Below are positions 27,162 through 48,566 of a DNA stretch of 64,000 nucleotides, piece by piece. The notes under the pieces were generated by a model. The model did no database searches. It saw only the letters and a list, made by a program, of their open reading frames with translations, and was not told the DNA's origin. Each line of letters begins with the position of its first letter. Within the stretch, counting starts at the first letter, position 1. This stretch comes from a virus. Its lineage: Duplodnaviria > Heunggongvirae > Uroviricota > Caudoviricetes. Both the position numbers and the translations under genes were made by a program. The DNA lies in the IMG/VR virus record IMGVR_UViG_2721755711_000002; one strand, given 5' to 3'.

Positions 27162-27165
27162 TGAG

Positions 27166-27348
27166 ATGAAGCGAAAACACTGGACACACAGAATGCCGCG
27201 AACGGCGGCGAAATGGGTACTGGTAGCGATACTGGTGCCTTTTTTCCTGGTGGGATGCGTCAGCCTGGATAAGGCGCGCCAGCTTTTCGATACGGCTTCT
27301 CAGGTCTGCGAAATTGTCGACGGTGTTCGACAGTGTCTGCAGAGCTGA
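27166..27348 (+). CDS. small lipoprotein, paralog of 14162..14344
   Basis: 60 aa; HWTHR motif, lipobox LVGC, conserved QLFD...VC.I.DG.RQC core shared with the Mu-like copy. Confidence 0.5.
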   Translation: MKRKHWTHRMPRTAAKWVLVAILVPFFLVGCVSLDKARQLFDTASQVCEIVDGVRQCLQS

Positions 27349-27510
27349 TCGCCCGTAAGAGCAGAATATTTTGCTGAAAAATGAAGGATGTGTCAGCGTC
27401 CGGAAAGCATGAAATTCTGCTGCGTGTACCAATTTTATCTTATTCATTCTAAATCTTGCCGAATCAAGCAACTGCCCGGGCGGCAAGGGGTATTTTTATC
27501 CGGAGGGGAT

Positions 27511-27735
27511 ATGAAGAGATTACTGGTAACCGTAAAGCCCTTTAACGGAACGATTCCATTCAGGGTTTTGCAGCGTGGACGTGTTCTGGTTAAGGATATC
27601 TTCAGTGGTAAATGCACGGAATGTTATTCCCGGACATATGAAGTGGATGCCACGGATGAAGAAATTTCTGTTGAATGTGATCTGAACGCGAATATGGCGG
27701 GGATTGTAACAGCCACGTTGTTGCCGGTTTCATGA
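27511..27735 (+). CDS. hypothetical small protein
   Basis: 74 aa from ATG 27511 with SD GGAGGGG. Confidence 0.35.
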   Translation: MKRLLVTVKPFNGTIPFRVLQRGRVLVKDIFSGKCTECYSRTYEVDATDEEISVECDLNANMAGIVTATLLPVS

Positions 27736-27777
27736 ATGACATAGAATGTCTCCGGGTACCCAAAAGGAGAACACTAT

Positions 27778-27991
27778 GTTTGTAGAAAATAACCTGAAGG
27801 CTGATCCTGATAATCAGGGATGGGTTCTGGGTTGGGCTGTAGTACGTGACAAACCGTGGCATCTGGTCGGTATTTATGCGACGGAGGATGGCGCAAAGTC
27901 TAAACGCTCTGAATTGAATGGGGAGTATGAAGTTCGTTATGGTTCCCATCGTTTAGGTAGTGATGATTTTATGTCTGTCGGACTTAGCTAA
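27778..27991 (+). CDS. hypothetical small protein
   Basis: 71 aa from ATG 27778 with SD AAGGAGA. Confidence 0.35.
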
Positions 27992-28052
27992 CTGGCTGTG
28001 ATGCCTGTTTGTAGCCCCGCAAATGCGGGGCTTTTTATATTTGGAGACGATA

Positions 28053-28445
28053 ATGAAAAAAACAGAAAATAAACCGGTTGCAATTGGTGCCGCTGTTGTT
28101 CCGTTTAAGTTTGAGTTGTCTCAACTGGTGGAGATGCGCATCAGTGATGAATGGGGTGAGGTTAAAGCCCGCGCGCAGTATGCGGATGGCGAAAACCAGT
28201 ACTTGATCCACTACAAGGCTGCTGATGGTCGCGCCACAACGGCGTGGTTTGGTGAGTCAATGCTGGAAGCAACAGAAGATGATCGCCATCCGGGCTGTCC
28301 GGTATTTGCCGGTATGAAATTACCGGAAGGCGCAGTTGAACTGCAGCCGGGTGAGGTGTTCGTAATGTCAGAAGTCATTGATGGCAAACCGCAGTATTCA
28401 CGTATTGAAACTAACGGCAAGGACGTTTGTCTGGTTCGCAAGTAA
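28053..28445 (+). CDS. hypothetical protein
   Basis: 130 aa from ATG 28053 with SD GGAGA; followed by a hairpin. Confidence 0.4.
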   Translation: MKKTENKPVAIGAAVVPFKFELSQLVEMRISDEWGEVKARAQYADGENQYLIHYKAADGRATTAWFGESMLEATEDDRHPGCPVFAGMKLPEGAVELQPGEVFVMSEVIDGKPQYSRIETNGKDVCLVRK

Positions 28446-28456
28446 CTTGCATTACA

Positions 28457-28479
28457 GCAGCCCTTCAGTGAAGGGCTGC
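28457..28479 (+). terminator. stem-loop without U-tract (weak terminator or RNA stability element)
   Basis: GCAGCCCTT CAGTG AAGGGCTGC, 9 bp stem. Confidence 0.3.
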
Positions 28480-28841
28480 GATAATGTGAGAAATAAAAAA
28501 CCGGTCACAGGGAGCAGCTACACAGAACCGGCCGGCGAAGACCGCCAATACCACCCATGCTTCAGTAAAACATGCATATGACATTAGCTGGTATTGATGT
28601 AAATGCAATGTTACGCATCGACAAAAATAAAAAACCGGCAGGGGAAATCCATGGAAGATTTGCCGGTGGCAAAAGTTGCCAATGCTTTTATAACCGTAGT
28701 CGCAGAGTTGCGGAGTGCAACTACGAATGCTGCAGGTATATGGCTGAATGGCGTTTCAATGATGTACGTCATCTTATCTGTAAATGTTAATGATAAACGC
28801 TCCCATTTGTGCGGGTCCTTTCCGGGAGTTGAAACACCGGG

Positions 28842-29537: not shown

Positions 29538-31425
29538 TATGATGGCTGCTGTTTCAGTTGCGCTGCAGCCTCTGGTCAGGGTTGTACCGATGACGGCAGT
29601 TGAATGGGCTGATCAAAATTATTATCTGCCTAAAGAATCGTCATACGGTGATGGGGAATGGAAAACACTGCCGTTCCAGGTCGCCATTATGAACAGCATG
29701 GGGCACGACAGGATCCGCACTGTTAATCTGATTAAATCGGCGCGTGTGGGTTACACCAAAATGCTGCTGGGCGTGGTCGGGTATTTTATTGAGCATAAAT
29801 CCCGTAACAGCCTGCTCTTCCAGCCGACAGATTCCGCAGCTGAAGATTTTATGAAAGCGCATGTGGAAGCAACGCTCCGGGATGTCCCCAGCCTTAAAGC
29901 GTTATCGCCATGGCTGGGCAGAAAACATCGTGACAACACACTCACTCTGAAGCGTTTTTCCTCCGGCGTGGGGTTCTGGTGCCTGGGGGGTGCCGCTGCT
30001 AAAAACTACCGTGAAAAATCAGTGGATGTGGTCTGCTATGACGAACTCTCCTCGTTTGAACCGGATGTGGAAAAGGAAGGCTCGCCAACGCTGCTTGGCG
30101 ATAAACGTATCGAAGGTTCGGTATGGCCTAAATCCATACGCGGCTCAACGCCAAAAATTAAAGGTTCCTGTCAGATTGAAAAAGCCGCGAACGAATCTGC
30201 ACATTTTATGCGGTTTTATGTGCCATGCCCTCATTGTGGTGAAGCCCAGTATCTTAAGTTTGGCGATGATGCGACAACCTTTGGCCTGAAATGGGAGAAG
30301 GGTAAACCGGAAACGGTGTATTACCTGTGTGAACATAATGGCTGTGTGATCCGGCAGTCGGAGCTTGACCAGACCGACGGGCGCTGGATTTGTGACAATA
30401 CCGGGATGTGGACGCGTGACGGCCTGGCATTTTACAGCGCCGGTGATGAGGAGATGCCGCCACCGCGCTCAATCACGTACCACGTGTGGACAGCGTACAG
30501 TCCGTTCACCACCTGGGTACAGATTGTTTATGACTGGCTGGATGCGCTGAAGGATCCGAACGGTGTCAAGACGTTTATTAACACCACGCTCGGGGAGCCC
30601 TATGAAGAGGCCGTGGCAGAAAAACTGAGCTTTGAGTTGTTGCTGGAAAAAGTCTGCCACTATGATGCGCAGGTTCCCCTGCGGGTGGTTTACCTGACTG
30701 CCGGGATCGACTCCCAGAAAGATCGCTATGAAATTTATGTCTGGGGCTGGGCTCCCGGCGAAGAAGCCTTTCTGATTGACAAGCAAATTATCATGGGGCG
30801 ACCGGAGGACGAGGACACCCTTAAACGTGTTGATGCGGTGATCCGGAAAAAATACCGCCATGCTGACGGTACTGAAATTTCCATTTCCCGCGTCTGCTGG
30901 GATACCGGTGGTATCGACCAGGACATTGTGTATCAGCGTTCCAGGAAACACGGCACTTTTTTTGTGCTTCCCATAAAAGGGGCATCGGTGTATGGCAAGC
31001 CGGTGATCACCATGCCCAAAAAGCGCAACCAGCGTGGTGTGTTTTTGTGTGAGGTGGGCTCCGATACCGTCAAGGAAATGCTGTACGCCCGTTTTGCCCT
31101 GCCGGTGGTTTCTGCCAGTGAAGCAGCCCCGTATACCTTCCGTTTTCCGGATAACCCGGACATTTTTTCGGAAGAAGAGGCGCGTCAAATCGTAGCGGAA
31201 GAACTGGTGGAAAAGGTGGTTAACGGCAGGGTGAAACTGCTGTGGGATAAAAAAGGGCGACGCAACGAAGCCCTCGACTGCCTGGTATATGCTTATGCCG
31301 CCCTGCGCGTTTCGGTACAGCGGTGGCAACTGGACCTTGAAGCGCTGGCGAGGGCACGAAGAGATGAGCAGGATGAGGATGATATGAGCATGGAAGAGAT
31401 CGCGGCTGCACTGAGTGGAGGATAA
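29509..31425 (+). CDS. A: terminase large subunit (lambda gpA-like)
   Basis: Start MNISELQL...; ...TAVEWADQNYYLPKES..., ...WPKSIRGSTPKIKGSCQIEKAA..., ...CPHCGEAQYLKFGD... track remembered lambda gpA; overlaps Nu1 end as in lambda. Confidence 0.85.
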   Translation: MNISELQLNNMMAAVSVALQPLVRVVPMTAVEWADQNYYLPKESSYGDGEWKTLPFQVAIMNSMGHDRIRTVNLIKSARVGYTKMLLGVVGYFIEHKSRNSLLFQPTDSAAEDFMKAHVEATLRDVPSLKALSPWLGRKHRDNTLTLKRFSSGVGFWCLGGAAAKNYREKSVDVVCYDELSSFEPDVEKEGSPTLLGDKRIEGSVWPKSIRGSTPKIKGSCQIEKAANESAHFMRFYVPCPHCGEAQYLKFGDDATTFGLKWEKGKPETVYYLCEHNGCVIRQSELDQTDGRWICDNTGMWTRDGLAFYSAGDEEMPPPRSITYHVWTAYSPFTTWVQIVYDWLDALKDPNGVKTFINTTLGEPYEEAVAEKLSFELLLEKVCHYDAQVPLRVVYLTAGIDSQKDRYEIYVWGWAPGEEAFLIDKQIIMGRPEDEDTLKRVDAVIRKKYRHADGTEISISRVCWDTGGIDQDIVYQRSRKHGTFFVLPIKGASVYGKPVITMPKKRNQRGVFLCEVGSDTVKEMLYARFALPVVSASEAAPYTFRFPDNPDIFSEEEARQIVAEELVEKVVNGRVKLLWDKKGRRNEALDCLVYAYAALRVSVQRWQLDLEALARARRDEQDEDDMSMEEIAAALSGG

Positions 31426-31428
31426 AGG

Positions 31429-31638
31429 ATGGTTTATACGCATGAAATGCTTTGCGAGGCGCGTCGGGCATTACATGAACTGATGATCGGGCGTGCTGTG
31501 GTTTCTGTCGGCAGGAACGGACGGCAGGTTCAGTATTCGCGTGCGACGATTGGTGAACTGCGGCAATACATTGAAGAGCTGGAGAGTGCGCTGGGCGTGT
31601 CCGGACGGCGTCGCGGTCCGGTGGGAGTGAGACTGTGA
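31429..31638 (+). CDS. W: head-tail joining protein (lambda gpW-like)
   Basis: 69 aa; ...ARRALHELMIGRAVVSV...RRRGP... resembles lambda gpW. Confidence 0.7.
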   Translation: MVYTHEMLCEARRALHELMIGRAVVSVGRNGRQVQYSRATIGELRQYIEELESALGVSGRRRGPVGVRL

Positions 31639-33206
31639 ATGTGGAGTTGATAGATGTTCACGGACAGCCCCTGCGACAGAGTATGGGATATTCCGGTGGC
31701 GGCTCCGGATTTGGTGGGCAGCTTGCGGAATGGTTACCTGCACCAGAAAGTGCCGACGTGGCGCTCTTACCTTCCATTCATCTGGGTAACGCCCGCGCGG
31801 ATGATCTGGTCCGTAATAATGGCATTGCCGCGAATGCTGTGGAAATTCATAAAGACCATATCGTCGGGCATATGTTTCGTCTGAGTTATCGCCCCAACTG
31901 GCGCTGGCTGGGGATGTCGGAAGCAGATTCACATGCTTTTATTGAAGATGTTGAGGCGGCGTGGATGGAATACTGCGATCCGGTGTTTGGTACGATGGAT
32001 GTGGAAGGGCGTCGTTCGTTTACCGAATTCATTCGTGAAGGGGTGGGTGTCCATACTTTTAATGGAGAAATTTTTGTCCAGCCTGTATGGGATGCGGAAT
32101 CCACGTCATTATTCCGGACGAAATTCAAAACCATCAGCCCGAAGCGTGTCAGTACACCCGGTTATGGTACCGGCGATCGTTTTATGCGTGCCGGGGTGGA
32201 AATAAACCGACACGGAAAAGCGCTGGCCTACCATGTTCAGGATGATGACTGGCCCGGCTACGGTGTCAGTAAATGGACACGAATTACGGCAACACTGCCT
32301 TCCGGACGACCGGGAATGATCCATGTGTTTCAGCCACAGGAAGACGGGCAGACCCGCGGGGCCAACCAGTTTTATTCTGTAATGGAGCGTCTCAAGATGC
32401 TCGACACACTGCAGGCCACGCAACTGCAGTCGGCGGTGGTTCGCGCCATGTATGCCGCCACGATTGAATCCACACTGGATTCGGAAAAAGCGTTTGAATA
32501 TATCGCCGGGGTGGGAGATGGAGGTAAAAATCCCCTGAACACCATCATGAAAGGCTACGCGCGTTATTACGCCACCAATACGGTAAAACTGGGCGGGGTC
32601 CGTATTCCGCATCTTTACCCGGGAGATTCACTGAATCTGCAGACAGCCCAGAATGCGGATAATGGTTTTTCTGAACTGGAAAAGGCGCTGTTACGTTACA
32701 TTGCTGCCGGACTGGGTGTGTCGTATGAGCAGCTTTCCCGGGATTATTCACAGGTCAGTTATTCCAGTGCCAGGGCATCCGCCAATGAGTCGTGGCGGTA
32801 TTTTATGGGAAAACGAAAATTTGTGGCCAGTCGCCTGGCGTCACAGATGTTTGCCTGCTGGCTGGAGGAAGCCCTTATTCGTGGTGTGATCCGTCCGCCG
32901 AAATCCCGTTTCTCATTCTGGGAGGCTCGTTCCGGGTGGTGCCGTGCCGAGTGGATTGGTGCCGGTCGTATGGCGATTGATGGCCTTAAGGAAGTGCAGG
33001 AAGCGGTGATGCGCATTGAAGGCGGCCTGAGTACATACGAGAAAGAGCTGGCCCTGATGGGGGATGACTATCAGGAGATTTTCCGCCAGCAGCTACGGGA
33101 AACTCAGGAGCGACAGGCTGCCGGTCTTCCGCGTCCGGTCTGGATAAAGGACGCGTTTCAACAGCAGATCCGACAGACAACGGGAGAAAAAGGCGATGCG
33201 CTGTAA
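31635..33206 (+). CDS. B: portal protein (lambda gpB-like)
   Basis: 523 aa ORF following W-like gene, overlapping start/stop; lambda head gene order. Confidence 0.8.
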   Translation: MNVELIDVHGQPLRQSMGYSGGGSGFGGQLAEWLPAPESADVALLPSIHLGNARADDLVRNNGIAANAVEIHKDHIVGHMFRLSYRPNWRWLGMSEADSHAFIEDVEAAWMEYCDPVFGTMDVEGRRSFTEFIREGVGVHTFNGEIFVQPVWDAESTSLFRTKFKTISPKRVSTPGYGTGDRFMRAGVEINRHGKALAYHVQDDDWPGYGVSKWTRITATLPSGRPGMIHVFQPQEDGQTRGANQFYSVMERLKMLDTLQATQLQSAVVRAMYAATIESTLDSEKAFEYIAGVGDGGKNPLNTIMKGYARYYATNTVKLGGVRIPHLYPGDSLNLQTAQNADNGFSELEKALLRYIAAGLGVSYEQLSRDYSQVSYSSARASANESWRYFMGKRKFVASRLASQMFACWLEEALIRGVIRPPKSRFSFWEARSGWCRAEWIGAGRMAIDGLKEVQEAVMRIEGGLSTYEKELALMGDDYQEIFRQQLRETQERQAAGLPRPVWIKDAFQQQIRQTTGEKGDAL

Positions 33207-34812
33207 TTTATCACATATTGCCGCGATGGCATTTAATGAGCCGCTTTTACTGGAACCCGCCTATGCGCGGGTTTTCTTTTGCGCACTGGGTAAGGAAATT
33301 GGGGCGGGCAGCCTTGCCGTTCCGCAGCAGGCCGTTCAGCTTGATGCCGATGGTATGCAGCTGGCGGTTACCGATTATATGACTGGTGGTCCGCGTCCGG
33401 TAAAGAGTTACCAGGTGAAAAATGGTATTGCCATTCTGCCGGTGAGCGGCACGCTGGTACATAAAATGGGCACCCTGCGGCCATATTCCGGTATGACCGG
33501 TTATGACGGTCTGACTGCCCGTCTTAAGTCAGCGGTGAACGACCCGGATGTACGCGGCATTTTACTGGATATCGACAGTCCGGGCGGTCAGGCTGCCGGG
33601 GCGTTTGACTGTGCTGACATGATTTACCGTCTGCGGGAACAGAAGCCCGTGTGGGCGCTGTGTAATGACATGGCCTGTTCAGCCGCCATGTTGCTGGCGG
33701 CGGCCTGTACGCGTCGGCTGGTCACGCAGACGGCAAAAATTGGTTCGATTGGTGTGATGATGGCGCACACCAGTTACGAGAAACAACTGGCACAGGAAGG
33801 CGTGGATATCACGCTGATTTACTCCGGGCAGCACAAGGTTGACGGCAACAGTATTCAGGCGTTGCCGACAGGTGTGCGTGCGGATTTTCAGCGCCGTATT
33901 GATGAGGCCCGCCGGATGTTTGTCGACAAGGTGGCACTTTATACGGGGCTGAGTTCAGCGGTGGTGATGAATACCGAGGCTGCCGTTTATGACGGTCAGG
34001 CAGGCATTGATACAGGCCTGGCTGATCAACTGATTAATGCTGCAGATGCCGTTGATGTAATGGTTTCTGCTCTGAACGACTCTGTTACACAGGAGAATAC
34101 GATGACAACAAAAAATCTCACCGTTGCTGAAGCGGTGTCCCAGGAAAATCAGCGCGTGATGGGGATCCTGAATTGTCAGGAGGCGAAAGGACGCGAAAAA
34201 CTGGCGCAGATGCTGGCAGGTCAGCAGGGAATGTCAGTTGAGCAGGCAAAAACATTACTGGCGGCAGCACCGGTTGCCGGTACTGACAGCACAGGCGATC
34301 AGATTGTGGCACTTCCGGAAGCAAAAGGACGTGAACAACTGGCACGGACGCTGGCTGAACAGCCGGGAATGACGGTGGAGCAGGCGAAAACGTTACTGGC
34401 AGCGGCACCGATTGCCGGTGCGGCAAGTACCGGCGAGCAGATTATGGCACTTCCGGAAGCAAAAGGGCGTGAACAACTCGCACAGGCGCTGGCTGAACAG
34501 CCGGGAATGACTGTGGAACAGGCGAAAATGCTACTGGCAGCGGCACCGGCAACCGGTACGGCAAGTACCGGCGATCAAATTATTGCGTTGCCGGAAGCAA
34601 AAGGACGCGAAAAACTGGCACAGGCGCTGGCCGAACAGCCGGGAATGACAGTGGAGCAGGCGAAAACACTGCTGGCAGCTGCGCCATCAGTATCGCAACC
34701 GTCACAGGTAACACTTTTTGAGCGCTTCATGGCACAGCATGCCGCCAGTGCCGTTTCCGGTGGCGGAACTGCCGGGAACGGGGAAGAAGAACTGCTGATG
34801 AGTATGCCGTAA
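33196..34812 (+). CDS. C: prohead protease / scaffold (lambda gpC/Nu3-like, S49 family) with expanded C-terminal repeats
   Basis: 538 aa; N-terminal half in the ClpP/S49 position; C-terminal half has four tandem 46 aa repeats. Confidence 0.75.
   Translation: MRCNLSHIAAMAFNEPLLLEPAYARVFFCALGKEIGAGSLAVPQQAVQLDADGMQLAVTDYMTGGPRPVKSYQVKNGIAILPVSGTLVHKMGTLRPYSGMTGYDGLTARLKSAVNDPDVRGILLDIDSPGGQAAGAFDCADMIYRLREQKPVWALCNDMACSAAMLLAAACTRRLVTQTAKIGSIGVMMAHTSYEKQLAQEGVDITLIYSGQHKVDGNSIQALPTGVRADFQRRIDEARRMFVDKVALYTGLSSAVVMNTEAAVYDGQAGIDTGLADQLINAADAVDVMVSALNDSVTQENTMTTKNLTVAEAVSQENQRVMGILNCQEAKGREKLAQMLAGQQGMSVEQAKTLLAAAPVAGTDSTGDQIVALPEAKGREQLARTLAEQPGMTVEQAKTLLAAAPIAGAASTGEQIMALPEAKGREQLAQALAEQPGMTVEQAKMLLAAAPATGTASTGDQIIALPEAKGREKLAQALAEQPGMTVEQAKTLLAAAPSVSQPSQVTLFERFMAQHAASAVSGGGTAGNGEEELLMSMP
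34176..34727 (+). repeat. four tandem in-frame 138 bp repeats inside the protease/scaffold gene
   Basis: Repeat unit EAKGRE.LA..LA.Q.GM.VEQAK.LLAAAP.AG..STG.QI.ALP; anchors at about 34183, 34320, 34458, 34596. Confidence 0.75.
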
Positions 34813-34852
34813 GCGGGGATCCGTGATTCAGATAAATCAGGAGACTGAGAAA

Positions 34853-35188
34853 ATGATTAAAACCACCACAGAAAAGCGCGCGGACGGGCGCATTTTTGCC
34901 GGAAGCGATCCGGTGTATACCGCAACAGGTACCAGTGGTATCAGTGTTGCCACGCCTTCACTGACGCCACTGATGCTGGATGACGCCAGCGGAAAACTGG
35001 TGGCATGGGATGGTCAGAAAGCCGGAACGGCTGTGGGGGTGCTGGCACTGGCGCTGGCCGGGACCGAGCCCGTACTGACGTACTACAAAAGCGGTACGTT
35101 TGCCACCGAATCGCTGGTCTGGCCGGATTCGGTGGATGCGGTGAAAAAAGCCAACGCGTTTGTGGGAAGTGCCATCAGCCACGCCTGA
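34853..35188 (+). CDS. D: head decoration protein (lambda gpD-like)
   Basis: ...TPLMLDDASGKLVAWDG...YYKSGTFATESLVWPD...FVGSAIS resembles lambda gpD; SD AGGAGA. Confidence 0.75.
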   Translation: MIKTTTEKRADGRIFAGSDPVYTATGTSGISVATPSLTPLMLDDASGKLVAWDGQKAGTAVGVLALALAGTEPVLTYYKSGTFATESLVWPDSVDAVKKANAFVGSAISHA

Positions 35189-35258
35189 TGGTGAAGTGAT
35201 TAACTGAAAAAAACGGGTCGTGATGCGGCCCGTTTGTGTTTTTAAAGGAAAGTCAATT

Positions 35259-36287
35259 ATGGGGTTATTTACCACGCGTCAGTTGCTCGGCTACACCGAG
35301 CAGAAAGTGAAATTCCGTGCGCTGTTTCTGGAGCTGTTTTTTCGTCGTACGGTCACTTTCCATACTCAGGAAGTGATGCTGGATAAAATCACCGGAAAAA
35401 CACCGGTTGCGGCATATGTGTCTCCGGTTGTGTCAGGTAAGGTACTGCGCAGTCGTGGTGGTGAAACCCGCGTGTTACGCCCCGGCTATGTTAAACCAAA
35501 ACACCGGCTGGATTATCAGCAGGCGGTGGAGCGTCTTCCGGGGGAAGATCCGGCCCGTCTTAATGACCCGGCCTACCGTCGCCTGCGTATTCTGACTGAC
35601 AACCTGAAACAGGAAGAGCAGGCGATTGTGCAGGTGGAAGAAATGCAGGCGGTCAGCGCTGTTCTGCAGGGTAAGTACACCATGAGCGGTGAACAGTTTG
35701 AGACGGTGGAAGTGGATTTTGGACGTTCTGCCGCCAATAACATTACGCAGGCAGGGGGACGCGAATGGTCAAAACAGAATGCTGACACCTTTGATCCGAC
35801 GCATGATCTGGATGCGTACTGCGATTTTGCTTCCGGTACCATCAATATTGCGATTATGGACGGTACTGTCTGGCGTATGCTGAACGGTTTTAAGCTGTTT
35901 CGTGAAAAACTGGATACCCGCCGTGGCTCAAAATCTGAACTGGAAACCGCGCTGAAAGATCTGGGTTCCGTGGTTTCTTTTAAAGGTTATTACGGTGATC
36001 TGGCCATCATGGTGGCGAAAACAACGTATGTTGATGAAAACGGGGATGAGCAGCGTTATCTGCCGGAAGGCACACTGATTCTTGGAAACACTCAGGTGGA
36101 GGGTGTCCGTTGTTATGGCGCAATCCAGGATAACCAGGCGCTGAGTGAAGGGATCACCTCTGCAATTCGTTATCCGAAACACTGGTTAGAGGTGGGGGAC
36201 CCGGGGTGCGAATATACCATGACGCAGTCTGCGCCGTTGATGGTGTTGCCGGATCCGGACGCGTTTGTGGTGGTTCAGGTGAAATAA
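35259..36287 (+). CDS. E: major capsid protein (lambda gpE-like)
   Basis: Start MGLFTTRQLL; ...YVSPVVSGKVLRSRGG...PGYVKPKH..., ...VEEMQAVSAVLQGKYTMSGEQF..., ...TQSAPLMVLPDPDAFVVVQV match lambda gpE closely. Confidence 0.85.
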   Translation: MGLFTTRQLLGYTEQKVKFRALFLELFFRRTVTFHTQEVMLDKITGKTPVAAYVSPVVSGKVLRSRGGETRVLRPGYVKPKHRLDYQQAVERLPGEDPARLNDPAYRRLRILTDNLKQEEQAIVQVEEMQAVSAVLQGKYTMSGEQFETVEVDFGRSAANNITQAGGREWSKQNADTFDPTHDLDAYCDFASGTINIAIMDGTVWRMLNGFKLFREKLDTRRGSKSELETALKDLGSVVSFKGYYGDLAIMVAKTTYVDENGDEQRYLPEGTLILGNTQVEGVRCYGAIQDNQALSEGITSAIRYPKHWLEVGDPGCEYTMTQSAPLMVLPDPDAFVVVQVK

Positions 36288-36291
36288 GGTC

Positions 36292-36318
36292 AGGCGGGAT
36301 ATTCCCGCCTTTTTCTTT
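36292..36318 (+). terminator. rho-independent terminator-like hairpin after capsid gene
   Basis: AGGCGGGATATTCCCGCCT followed by TTTTCTTT. Confidence 0.5.
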
Positions 36319-36337
36319 ATCGCACAGGAGAGATGTG

Positions 36338-45179: not shown

Positions 45180-46815
45180 CCTGAAAGCGAATATCAGGAT
45201 CGGCGGCACGATAGATCCGTCGTGGAAAAAATCGGTTGATGGACTGAAGCACGGATTATCAGGGGCAACGCAGGAAGTGGCTCGCCTGACTCGCCAGCAG
45301 GATGTACTGAAACGAAAAATTCAGGCTGGCGTACTGGCAGGGCAGGATATTACTGAACTGCGAAAGCAGTATGAAAAGCTGGGCAAAAAAATTCATGATG
45401 CCACCGGAGAGCAGGATAAATTTAACCGTAAGCTGGCACGTGCGGAACGTCTGGAACGCTGGAAAGGGCGTGGAAAGACCGCTCTGAAAGCGGGGTTAGG
45501 GCTTTCGGTCGGGGCAGGACTGACACTGGCAGGCGCTGCCGGTGCAGCACTTAGCCGGAACAGTGAAACTGCAGAGCGGGCAGGGATAGCCCGGAGTTAC
45601 GGTGTGGATTATGAGACGTATGCAGCGTGGGATTCGCTGGGTAAGCAGATGGGGCTGAACGGGGAAAACTTCGGGGATCTGTTTGAGGAGTACCGTAACA
45701 AGGTTTTTGATGATGATAATGGCGCATCGGATAAAGGTGCCATACAGCAGGTCTTCGGGGCGCTGGGGCTGAAAACCGGGGTGATGGCGGGAAAAAACAA
45801 CCAGGAGCAGGTTGAATTTCTTTTTGACCGATTGCTGCAGGTGAAGGATGAACAAAAGGCTGCCGGGATGGCGGATGCATTGTTTGGTGGTGAGGGTAAT
45901 AAGATCCTGACCTGGATACGTCTGTCAGGAAAAACTTACCGGGAGCTTATTGAGGAGCAGAAGCGCTATAACCTGGTGACCAGGGAAGGGGCGGATGGTG
46001 CCGTCCGGGGACATATCGCCGTCTCAAACCTCACCGGTGTTCTGGGTTCGTCCATTGATGAAATCTGTGGACAGCTGGGGAAAGAGCTGGCACCGAATAT
46101 TCAGCAGGTCACGGACGACCTGGCGGACTGGTTTAAAAACGGCGGGCTGGAAAAAATCAATACATTTATCAGAGAGGGCGCGCTGCCGATGTTGATCAAG
46201 GTGACGGCCTGGGCGTGGAATTTTGGAAAAGTCATTGCCGGGCTCACTGAAAAGGCCATCGAGTGGGGGCTGGCTGAAGATCCACGGAGTGACCGGCGTG
46301 AGGTGCTGGAATATCTGGCAAAAACAGGCTCACCAGAGCTGGCAAGGGCAGTGGCGAAGAGGAACGGGCAGGATAAATGGTTTGATGATCAGCTTAAAAA
46401 AAATCCCGATCTGACGAAGCAGGTTGTGAAGGCGTATACAGACACACGCGGTTTCCTGAGTGATGACGATAAAAAATTTGAGGCGTCCCTCGAGCCTTTT
46501 CTGGGGCCAGAAGACGATCCGGACTTTGACGGATGGGAAAAGAAAGCGCTTGATGTCCTCGCGAAGTATGACACCCCACCCGCTACAAAACAGGGGCAGG
46601 AAAAAACGGATCCTCTTTCTGCGCTTCACTACGTTCCGGGCAGTATCAGCCAGGTGGAAGTAAAACCCACGTATCAGATACGGGCTGAATTTAACCTCAC
46701 CCAGAAGCCCGGCGAGGATGCCGGACAGCTGGCAGACAGGGTGACGAAAAATCTGGGTGATATTGATTTTGGCCAGCGGGCCAGCATGACCGACAGTTAT
46801 GCATTCTGGGGGTGA
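45160..46815 (+). CDS. T: tail tape measure protein (P2 gpT-like)
   Basis: 551 aa after E/E'; coiled-coil N-terminus and Gly-rich hydrophobic segment. Confidence 0.7.
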   Translation: MATVGDNLKANIRIGGTIDPSWKKSVDGLKHGLSGATQEVARLTRQQDVLKRKIQAGVLAGQDITELRKQYEKLGKKIHDATGEQDKFNRKLARAERLERWKGRGKTALKAGLGLSVGAGLTLAGAAGAALSRNSETAERAGIARSYGVDYETYAAWDSLGKQMGLNGENFGDLFEEYRNKVFDDDNGASDKGAIQQVFGALGLKTGVMAGKNNQEQVEFLFDRLLQVKDEQKAAGMADALFGGEGNKILTWIRLSGKTYRELIEEQKRYNLVTREGADGAVRGHIAVSNLTGVLGSSIDEICGQLGKELAPNIQQVTDDLADWFKNGGLEKINTFIREGALPMLIKVTAWAWNFGKVIAGLTEKAIEWGLAEDPRSDRREVLEYLAKTGSPELARAVAKRNGQDKWFDDQLKKNPDLTKQVVKAYTDTRGFLSDDDKKFEASLEPFLGPEDDPDFDGWEKKALDVLAKYDTPPATKQGQEKTDPLSALHYVPGSISQVEVKPTYQIRAEFNLTQKPGEDAGQLADRVTKNLGDIDFGQRASMTDSYAFWG

Positions 46816-47306
46816 TGATGGTGGATTTTGTTGGCTTTGGCGCAAACATGATTGAGCGCAAGGCATGGGACAGGATTGGTTCATTAACCGATGTGGCCTC
46901 GCGGGTCATGCTGTCGTTTGGTGAGTTTGAGTTCAGTATTGATTCAGCGGCGTATAACGCCATGAAGCGCACCATGGAATGGCGATGGGATGAGCAGCAG
47001 TTAATCGGAAAAAAGGATCTGCTGCAGTATACCGGTAAGGGGGCCAGAACGATAAGCCTTGAAGGGATGGTTCATGCGGGATTTCGTGACGGTGTGGGGA
47101 TGGATGCCCTTGATACGCTGGTTCAGATGGTGGATAAAAATCCTGCGCCGCATCTGCTGGTTTCCGGGACGGGGGATGTGATGGGGTATTTTGTTGTAAC
47201 CGCCTATTCAGATAACACCACGTCCTTTCTTCCCGGCGGTGCGCCGAAAAACAAAACGTTCACACTGGAGCTGAAATACTATGGCGAAAAACTGGCGGAC
47301 CACTGA
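46815..47306 (+). CDS. U: tail protein (P2 gpU-like)
   Basis: ORF after tape measure with overlapping stop/start (TGATG). Confidence 0.65.
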   Translation: MMVDFVGFGANMIERKAWDRIGSLTDVASRVMLSFGEFEFSIDSAAYNAMKRTMEWRWDEQQLIGKKDLLQYTGKGARTISLEGMVHAGFRDGVGMDALDTLVQMVDKNPAPHLLVSGTGDVMGYFVVTAYSDNTTSFLPGGAPKNKTFTLELKYYGEKLADH

Positions 47307-47499
47307 CGGCGATATGCTGGATGATATCTGTCAGAGACACTACGGCAGCGCCGGACTCAACCAGTCACTGGCGGCGGTACTGGAGGCTAATCCCGGGCTG
47401 GCTGATCTTGGTCCGGTGTATCCGTCCGGGGTGGAAATCGTGTTACCGGACTGGACATATGAGCCGGAAGAGAAGGAGACGTTTCAGTTATGGGACTGA
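47281..47499 (+). CDS. X: tail protein X (P2 gpX-like)
   Basis: 72 aa ORF between U-like and D-like genes, overlapping both. Confidence 0.6.
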   Translation: MAKNWRTTDGDMLDDICQRHYGSAGLNQSLAAVLEANPGLADLGPVYPSGVEIVLPDWTYEPEEKETFQLWD

Positions 47500-48566
47500 A
47501 TGAATATCAGCCGGATTTCAGTCTGACGGTGGAAGGCGAGGATATCACGAAAGCAATAAAACGCGGACTGGCTGAACTGCGTTATACCGATAATGGTGCT
47601 GCCACAAAGCGGGCTGATGAGTTAATGATAACGCTGTTCAGTGAAACGCTGGCATTGCCACCGAAAGGCGCAGTATTAACGCTGGGGCTGGGGTTTAACG
47701 GACGTCTGGTGAATAAGGGTAGCTTTACTGTCTGTCAGGTGGCAAGCGGTGGCCCTCCCCGCCGGATCACCATTTATGCCACAGCAGCCCCCATGAATGC
47801 GTCCAGGCATGGTGCAGATGTGACTGCACTGAAAACCCGCGCCTTCAGCGATGTCACGCTGGGTGACCTGGTAAAAACGATCGCCACTGAAAATAATCTG
47901 GTGGCGCGGGTATCTCCGGCACTGGAGAAAATTCGTATTCCGTGGGTGATGCAGTCATCTGAGTCGGATGCGTCCCTGCTTTCCCGGCTTGCAGGGATGT
48001 ACGGTGCCACCAGTAAACCGATGAACGGTTACTGGTTATTTCTGGAGTATGGTGCGTCGCAGAGTACCGGAGGCAGGGATGCCCCTGTGATGACCATCAC
48101 ACCGGATATGGTGTCAGACTGGGATTACCGGGAGGGCGATCGGCAGGGGGCATCCGGAGGCGGAAAAGGGGGAAAGGTTGGTGTCAGGTACTTTACTCCG
48201 TCTGATGGTCGCACGCGTGAACTTAAAGTGGATGTGGAGTCCACAGACAAGCGGCATCCCTTCACCCAGCCAGACCAGAGCACGGCAGAACATTGTGCAC
48301 AGTCGAAGGTAAAGCGGGTGCAGAAAGCGGGGCGTCAGATGACGATAACGCTGCCCTGCCGACCGGTATTGCTGAAAGCGGGGGCGGAAGTGCGCTTTAT
48401 CACACGGGGCTTCGGGGTACGGGAGGACCATAACTGGCAGGCAGAGTCAGTGGAATTTTCGTTGTCACCGGTGCAGGGATTTTCGCTGAATCTGTCGCTG
48501 GCCACGGATATTTCTGCAAAGGGGAAAGCCAGTGGCAAGAAAAAAGGCGTCAATTATTTTGGTTAA
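47490..48566 (+). CDS. D: late control / tail protein (P2 gpD-like)
   Basis: 358 aa ORF closing the P2-like tail cluster. Confidence 0.7.
   Translation: MGLNEYQPDFSLTVEGEDITKAIKRGLAELRYTDNGAATKRADELMITLFSETLALPPKGAVLTLGLGFNGRLVNKGSFTVCQVASGGPPRRITIYATAAPMNASRHGADVTALKTRAFSDVTLGDLVKTIATENNLVARVSPALEKIRIPWVMQSSESDASLLSRLAGMYGATSKPMNGYWLFLEYGASQSTGGRDAPVMTITPDMVSDWDYREGDRQGASGGGKGGKVGVRYFTPSDGRTRELKVDVESTDKRHPFTQPDQSTAEHCAQSKVKRVQKAGRQMTITLPCRPVLLKAGAEVRFITRGFGVREDHNWQAESVEFSLSPVQGFSLNLSLATDISAKGKASGKKKGVNYFG

Follow-up and report, generated by a model that had tools for sequence, protein, structure and literature searches.

The DNA analysed here, a stretch of 64,000 nucleotides (nt) from the IMG/VR virus record IMGVR_UViG_2721755711_000002 (Duplodnaviria; Heunggongvirae; Uroviricota; Caudoviricetes) that we call the window, carries at 33196..34812 (+) a prohead protease/scaffold gene of the phage lambda gpC type, whose C-terminal half contains four tandem copies of a small module. 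We read these copies as Nu3-type scaffold modules that would act as multivalent attachment or self-association units and would recruit both the scaffold and the protease into the procapsid. We give this reading as a whole a probability of about 60%. Its parts differ in strength: the identity of the gene and the anatomy of the four-module array are almost certain, and the valency mechanism, taken separately, comes close to an even bet without quite reaching it.

The gene, which encodes 538 amino acids (aa) and whose ATG start overlaps the stop of the portal gene by 11 nt, is a lambda gpC-type S49 prohead protease in a canonical lambda head module. The gpC-like nature that an earlier note had read from the sequence is borne out by domain and family searches, by the neighbouring head genes and by full-length alignment. 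Its product matches Peptidase_S49 (PF01343) over aa 146-290 (E = 4.1e-33, 115 bits for a cutoff of 24.9), which places an S49 (SppA/ClpP-like) protease domain at 33631..34065 (+), and it matches phrog_53, 'head maturation protease' (E = 4e-218). According to Pfam, the genes follow the order terminase gpA, gpW, portal gpB, protease/scaffold gene, gpD and gpE. The protein aligns end to end with lambda gpC (439 aa) and with phage 21 gp5 (501 aa). Ser162 (in NDMACSA) and Lys214 (in YSGQHKVDGN) correspond to Ser166 and Lys218 of lambda gpC, in columns that are invariant in a five-protein alignment. Ser166, which we take to be the catalytic serine of lambda gpC, was reportedly assigned by Medina et al. 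in 2010. Besides this catalytic pair, lambda gpC/Nu3 and the window have in common the gene position, the S49 domain, an N-terminal motif and an internal Shine-Dalgarno sequence followed by an ATG. The window protein is 99 aa longer than lambda gpC, as the earlier note had it with its figure of about 100 aa, and this net excess corresponds to three additional units (+138 aa) minus a lambda spacer of about 40 aa that is missing here.

Tandem Repeats Finder detects one array at 34179..34679 (period 138, 3.6 copies, 84% matches, 0% indels, score 659), the sole tandem repeat with a score of at least 80 in the window. Unit comparison sets the indel-free 138-bp array at 34180..34686, that is 3.67 units. 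The period equals 46 codons and the array is in frame with the gene, its units starting at nt 34180, 34318, 34456 and 34594 (aa 329, 375, 421 and 467). Each unit has a 31-aa core, EAKGRE(K/Q)LAxxLAxQxGM(S/T)VEQAKxLLAAAP, which is followed by a 15-aa linker (e.g. VAGTDSTGDQIVALP) in units 1 to 3 and directly by a unique C-terminal tail in unit 4. Unit 1 (34180..34317 (+), aa 329-374) belongs to a module that opens with an upstream helix, QENQRVMGILNCQ, from about nt 34138. Units 2 (34318..34455 (+), aa 375-420) and 3 (34456..34593 (+), aa 421-466) are internal, and among relatives it is units of this kind that have been duplicated, lost or converted. Unit 4 (34594..34686 (+), aa 467-497) is limited to the core, which matches the other cores at 75-81 of 93 nt. 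The tail, as read from the alignment, occupies 34687..34809 (+) (SVSQPSQVTLFERFMAQH...EELLMSMP). Units 1 to 3 match each other pairwise at 101-119 of 138 nt; among the cores, unit 1 matches units 2 to 4 at 70-75 of 93 nt and pairs within units 2 to 4 match at 80-85 of 93 nt.

Repeat detection, reading frame and unit comparison thus agree on tandem in-frame 138-bp repeats, which the earlier note had placed at 34176..34727 as four full units. The place is right but the ends are not, since that interval starts 4 bp early and runs about 41 bp beyond the last homologous base. The count of four likewise depends on the phase: the phase chosen in that note gives 3.67 units, whereas in the structural phase, where the short helix preceding the core is counted in, there are four complete modules at about 34138..34695. 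An antisense open reading frame (ORF) of 102 aa, low in complexity and rich in Pro, Ala and Val, also spans part of the array (34118..34426 (-)). It is unsupported and incompatible with the strong constraint on the sense frame, and is most likely a by-product of the codon composition of an Ala/Gln/Glu-rich repeat.

Sequence comparison shows what is repeated here, a module of about 46 aa: it is the conserved core of the scaffolding domain of the lambda Nu3 type. Lambda has the same C-terminal module in one copy (aa 369-399, EAHGREEQARVLAETPGMTVKTARRILAAAP) where the window has four, and the C-terminal region of the window protein aligns directly with lambda aa 355-399. Lambda differs from the window by the spacer of about 40 aa that precedes its module and by a shorter tail. 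Moreover, two profiles of single-copy scaffolds, phrog_8399 ('head scaffolding protein', E = 1e-51) and phrog_8940 ('capsid assembly protein', E = 1e-42), both hit the window protein in four stretches.

A tandem arrangement is also found in phage 21 (GenBank M81255), where gene 6, a Nu3 homologue nested in frame in gene 5, carries three tandem in-frame modules homologous to the four of the window. The record labels them 'Tri1 box', 'Tri box' and 'Tri3 box' ('function unknown; putative'), and the window units align with all three annotated boxes. The two arrays differ in regularity: the three units of phage 21 are well diverged and lie 50 and 47 aa apart, whereas the four units of the window follow an exact 46-aa period. 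They also differ in variability, since the phage 21 type is fixed at three units in all 28 IMG/VR loci and in the species representatives retrieved, whereas the window lineage has two to five. At the end of the tail, LLMSMP in the window is conserved with MLMAMP in phage 21, and LLNTPV in lambda resembles it. Literature searches for the repeats returned nothing beyond this GenBank annotation of phage 21.

Beyond these phages, a profile of the module retrieved 1,826 cluster representatives among 1.84 billion proteins. Almost all of the best 150 of these 1,826 have a single matched stretch. Searches of Pfam, NCBIfam and the Protein Data Bank (PDB; by sequence and by profile) found no family that covers the module. 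The weak Pfam matches to Peptidase_C23, T2SSK, Bac_DNA_binding and HTH_15 have no significant individual stretch and were rejected as repeat or helix noise.

The modules and the tail are predicted to be translated twice. A Shine-Dalgarno sequence, AGGAG, read at 34091..34095 (+), stands 6 nt before an internal ATG, which would open a nested in-frame scaffold ORF at 34102..34812 (+) analogous to Nu3 and phage 21 gp6 (236 aa, 24.2 kDa, pI 4.9), made of the four modules and the tail. At the same position, phage 21 has an annotated ribosome-binding site (GAGGA) and the start of gene 6, and lambda has an ATG preceded by AGGAGG. Since the Shine-Dalgarno sequence and the ATG recur where phage 21 gene 6 begins, the gene would be expected to yield two products, the 538-aa protease and a 236-aa scaffold with common modules and tail. 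The repeats lie downstream of this internal start, in agreement with the scaffold-like C-terminal half to which the earlier note had assigned them. The annotation of relatives by the Prokaryotic Genome Annotation Pipeline (PGAP) records no nested gene. In lambda itself, the nu3 start given by RefSeq (NC_001416 position 5132, gpC residue 239; position 2533 of our lambda locus L004) has no obvious Shine-Dalgarno sequence. The lambda ATG at residue 309 (NC_001416 position 5342; L004 about 2743) has AGGAGG before it and is homologous to the phage 21 gene 6 start and to window position 34102.

Structure prediction is consistent with a repeated domain. In an AlphaFold2 model of the 236-aa product, the modules are helical with a predicted local distance difference test score (pLDDT) of 70-86, the linkers score low, and the modules do not pack against each other (predicted template modelling score, pTM, 0.27). 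A single 48-aa module modelled from a 34-sequence alignment of units reaches a pLDDT of 82.4 and a pTM of 0.61, with helices at residues 6-11, 20-27 and 34-43. This corresponds to a short helix (DxIMAL), a turn with the nearly invariant EAxGRE, and a helix-turn-helix; the invariant pattern EAxGRE...A...L...A is kept in every unit. A Foldseek search gave no matches. On these models, each module would fold by itself into a small domain of three helices, and the product would string such domains on flexible linkers like beads. Tandem domains built as three-helix bundles, the staphylococcal protein A repeats for example, are among the known systems closest to it.

Other assembly systems offer analogies rather than homologues. 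In herpesvirus UL26/UL26.5, phage P2 gpO and Mu gpI/gpZ, the protease and the scaffold have a common C-terminal portion, and the logic is alike, the protease being packaged through the same contacts as the scaffold. However, their protease families and C-terminal elements are unrelated to those of the window, and we know of no tandemly repeated module in any of them. The coat-binding helix-turn-helix of P22 is basic and binds the capsid protein electrostatically. No such basic surface is found here, the net charges of the four modules being +1, -2, -2 and -1. Scaffolds such as P22 gp8 and phi29 gp7 likewise have a small helical hairpin in a flexible, largely extended protein (PMC11565965, PMC11922011), a likeness that we regard as functional analogy only. 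PDB sequence and profile searches and Foldseek found neither sequence similarity nor significant structural similarity between them and the module. Furthermore, the module is unlike the P22-type element in being not basic, repeated and common to a protease.

We propose that the scaffold and the protease would enter the growing gpE shell by way of this module, which could bind the capsid protein, mediate association between scaffold chains, or do both. With additional copies, a chain would gain valency and reach. Linkers that lie exposed might let the protease dismantle the scaffold once assembly is done, as in lambda. Copy number would shift where the internal units recombine unequally in register or undergo replication slippage, with unique flanks anchoring the two outermost units. 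This proposal agrees with what is established for related proteins. Lambda Nu3 interacts with B, with C and with itself, and yeast two-hybrid assays add E as a partner (PMC3224144); lambda cannot do without C or nu3 (PMC10695390); and in other phages, scaffolds bind the capsid protein through helix-turn-helix elements (PMC11565965, PMC11922011).

Several points weigh against this reading. The capsid-binding role would follow from analogy with P22, phi29 and herpesvirus and from one two-hybrid result obtained with whole Nu3. The module is neutral to slightly acidic, so that the chemistry would differ from that of the basic P22 helix-turn-helix. Translation from the internal ATG at 34102 is a prediction from sequence only. 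One copy is enough in lambda and two to five copies accompany one capsid protein, hence the extra valency is not strictly required. Finally, none of the cultured phages in INPHARED has four or five units, and the viability of such alleles is assumed.

The main rival reading holds that the modules are mainly elements of scaffold-scaffold oligomerisation or of portal recruitment and that the extreme C-terminal tail (...LLMSMP) binds the capsid, as in herpesvirus scaffolds. We consider it rather unlikely, while placing it ahead of the other alternatives. It would account for the Nu3-Nu3 and Nu3-B interactions of lambda and for the need of Nu3 in portal incorporation (PMC3224144), and it fits a tail motif that is conserved between the window and phage 21 and similar in lambda, as well as a module that is not basic. 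However, the Nu3-E two-hybrid interaction is also on record (PMC3224144), and across the 1,826 cluster representatives conservation is far higher in the module than in the tail. The sequence data do not separate the two roles.

A different explanation treats the extra units as near-neutral variation in the length of a tolerant, flexible scaffold region, with one working module and recombination passengers beside it. The number of units does vary among relatives, as the earlier note had expected. One unit is found in lambda and in nearly all species-representative Enterobacterales genomes. Within the window lineage, two units occur in three IMG/VR loci, three units in three further IMG/VR loci and in the finished genome PapRG-04-4 (492 aa), and five units in one IMG/VR locus and in nine finished genomes of Shiga toxin-producing Escherichia coli (STEC). 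Four units occur in 41 IMG/VR loci, a dominance biased by the fact that the IMG/VR sample was ranked by similarity to a four-unit query, and in most finished E. coli genomes of the lineage. Two units are also found in Buttiauxella ferragutiae. The phage 21 lineage keeps its three units, with their spacing of 50 and 47 aa, in E. coli, Shigella, Escherichia albertii, Providencia and Trabulsiella. Among the finished genomes, five units were verified in STEC005 (584 aa), whose adjacent units match at 128, 133 and 116 of 138 nt and hence are not identical, and STEC316 (E. coli, NZ_CP041431.1; H100 and H161) harbors two related prophages with four and five units.

When relatives are compared, the first and last units are stable, and turnover is seen in those between them. 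In the three-unit PapRG allele, the middle unit is a nucleotide patchwork of window units 2 and 3, and the same mosaic forms unit 3 of locus L012. In another series, L046, L028, L014 and L017 have, between unit 1 and the last unit, zero, one, two and three copies, respectively, of a single internal unit; these copies are identical over 138 of 138 nt in contigs from draft genomes, so that the counts could be unreliable. The linkers are homogenised in L014, L017 and L028. As read from these alignments, the patterns of unit number indicate in-register unequal exchange or conversion, or slippage. Thus the variation that had been attributed to slippage is real, and the data do not separate slippage from unequal recombination. 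Recent slippage is plausible for alleles like L014 and L017. It is rejected for the array of the window, whose units differ at 14-27% of positions, share no in-register run longer than 25 bp, and are separated by a synonymous divergence (dS) of 0.24-1.5.

The same figures bear on the passenger explanation. Despite a dS that reaches 1.5, the ratio of nonsynonymous to synonymous divergence (dN/dS) of the core stays at 0.06-0.19 in all four units, similar to that of the protease domain (0.11 between the window and the STEC309 allele). The units are old, and purifying selection has conserved the peptide of each one individually. Such a dS with a conserved peptide argues against recent slippage, against passenger copies and against a role as 'boxes' at the DNA level. 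Passengers would drift, whereas every unit keeps the invariant EAxGRE...A...L...A pattern and is predicted to fold, and phage 21-type arrays are fixed at three diverged units across five host groups, from E. coli to Trabulsiella. The explanation draws support from the single module of lambda and of most Enterobacterales relatives, from the occurrence of two to five units with the same capsid protein and from the turnover of internal units. On balance, we regard it as improbable.

Unit number can be compared directly with the capsid protein. In the three-unit allele of PapRG-04-4, the adjoining gpE is 100% identical to that of the window. In L046 (two units), L028 (three), L014 (four) and L017 (five), gpE is in each case 98.5% identical to it. 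Moreover, gpD, the capsid protein and FI carry the same RefSeq accessions in STEC309 (four units) as in STEC005 (five units). Genomes or contigs are also of similar size: 48.5 kb for lambda (one unit), 42.9 kb for phage 21 (three) and 42-47.6 kb for four-unit viral contigs. Since the same or nearly the same gpE occurs with two to five units at similar genome sizes, copy number is uncoupled from capsid sequence. Therefore, any tuning of procapsid assembly by the repeats, as the earlier note had suggested, is not tied to the sequence of the capsid protein.

These data also bear on the idea that the number of modules is a ruler for the size or the triangulation number of the procapsid. In other systems, the scaffold can affect how large a capsid becomes, as in P2/P4 Sid and the 80alpha satellites, and the nested product would range from 131 aa in lambda to 282 aa in five-unit alleles. 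Nevertheless, capsid proteins that are identical or near-identical with two to five units, and the similar genome sizes, make a ruler very unlikely.

Still less credit can be given to a role of the repeats at the DNA or RNA level, as protein-binding 'boxes' or as RNA structure. This possibility takes its name from the wording of the phage 21 record, but synonymous sites are heavily diverged and the peptide is conserved, so selection acts on the protein, and the module occurs singly in about 1,800 protein clusters. A DNA-level 'box' function is thus rejected.

Lastly, the four-copy count is not an assembly artefact. In 17 finished E. coli genomes, the region 33950..34900 has a single collinear match of identical length with 98.4-99.3% identity, and one IMG/VR contig encodes a protein identical to that of the window. 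Moreover, the divergence between the units of the window means that reads can be placed, and a collapse is not expected. The risk of assembly collapse raised in the earlier note therefore does not apply to the window. It has some support more generally: 16 of 120 database homologues end within or just after the array, many matches are labelled 'partial', and some draft-derived contigs have internal units identical over 138 of 138 nt, so that their four- or five-unit counts could be unreliable. With 17 finished genomes of equal length and diverged units on the other side, we hold the probability of collapse or expansion in the window to be negligible.

The genes that surround the array complete the head module. 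Upstream lies the portal gene of the lambda gpB family (31635..33206 (+); Pfam Phage_portal_2, E = 4e-95). Downstream, a head decoration protein of the gpD family (34853..35188 (+); Pfam HDPD, E = 5e-22), whose 111 aa correspond to the form annotated by PGAP in relatives, is followed by the 342-aa major capsid protein of the gpE family (35259..36287 (+); Pfam Phage_cap_E, E = 8e-65). The longest ORFs of gpE and gpD begin further upstream, at GTG 35220 and GTG 34823 respectively, than the starts that PGAP uses in relatives. The PGAP-type starts are ATG 35259 for gpE (342 aa) and ATG 34853 for gpD (111 aa, preceded by AGGAG), and the family profiles begin there.

The phage as a whole is a mosaic, as the region 36206..48566 shows. 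Its lambda-type head module (gpA to gpE, an FI-like protein and head closure Hc1) is followed by contractile-tail genes, which include baseplate genes (38084..39001 and 39367..40281), a tail fibre gene (40859..42091) and a sheath gene (42605..44164). In E. coli C311 (locus L086), a head module with 95% DNA identity, which also has a four-unit gene, is joined to a lambda-type non-contractile tail, and the window and C311 match only at 27163..28825 and 29584..36453.

Three other sets of sequences were met during the searches. Among GTDB species representatives, gpC matches were obtained in Neobacillus, Kitasatospora, Shewanella, Pseudomonas, Oceanobacillus, Leeuwenhoekiella, Akkermansia and others (loci L098-L105, L109, L120, L122, L123, L125 and L129-L146). 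These loci lie on contigs of about 48.4 kb or on tiny low-coverage ones, and an identical match of 1287 bp with one module recurs in the longer ones; they look like contamination of the assemblies with DNA of phage lambda. Some cluster representatives are fusions: P0160 joins a tape-measure N-terminus to S49 (844 aa), P0152 joins S49 to minor tail protein L (582 aa), and P0149 joins Nu1 to the S49 protease (504 aa). All three are probably chimeric or misassembled lambda-derived sequences and not real architectures. Finally, stand-alone proteins with one or two Nu3-type modules occur in a compact phage-like element of Bradyrhizobium and in a Logan contig (L148-L151). This type of element encodes a DnaB-like AAA_25 protein, a weak TerS-like match, the module protein, a 297-aa ORF beside it, and a PhageMin_Tail protein. 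When this neighbourhood was used to ask whether a gpE-type capsid gene always goes with the module, the 297-aa ORF matched no family. Within 6 kb there is neither an S49 protease nor a portal nor a large terminase. The element could represent a satellite, or else a small phage that has diverged.

Neither the gene family nor its nested arrangement is new, and a tandem array with three copies of the module has been on record for decades in phage 21. What is new is the four-copy allele with its exact 46-aa period, the series of two to five units within one lineage, including finished genomes, the uncoupling of copy number from the capsid protein, and the recognition of the module as a widespread domain that has no family entry. 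For annotation, PGAP labels such genes simply as 'S49 family peptidase', which leaves the nested scaffold and the repeated module unrecorded. Short-read assemblies of prophages from E. coli and Salmonella also break often at the array, and repeat counts from drafts with identical internal units should not be trusted.

The general picture of lambda-type head assembly is unchanged by these findings. However, the contacts between lambda Nu3 and the shell are poorly defined, and alleles with two to five modules beside the same capsid protein allow a direct test of valency. More speculatively, and in our view doubtfully, the Nu3 module could be an uncatalogued, widespread capsid-assembly domain, present in about 1,800 protein clusters, that acts as the unit of scaffold valency. 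If this were true, the natural series of one to five copies beside identical capsid proteins would be a ready-made experimental series, which could reveal the number of contacts with the capsid that each scaffold chain must make for a T=7 shell. Copy number would then tune the kinetics or the fidelity of assembly, and not the size of the capsid.

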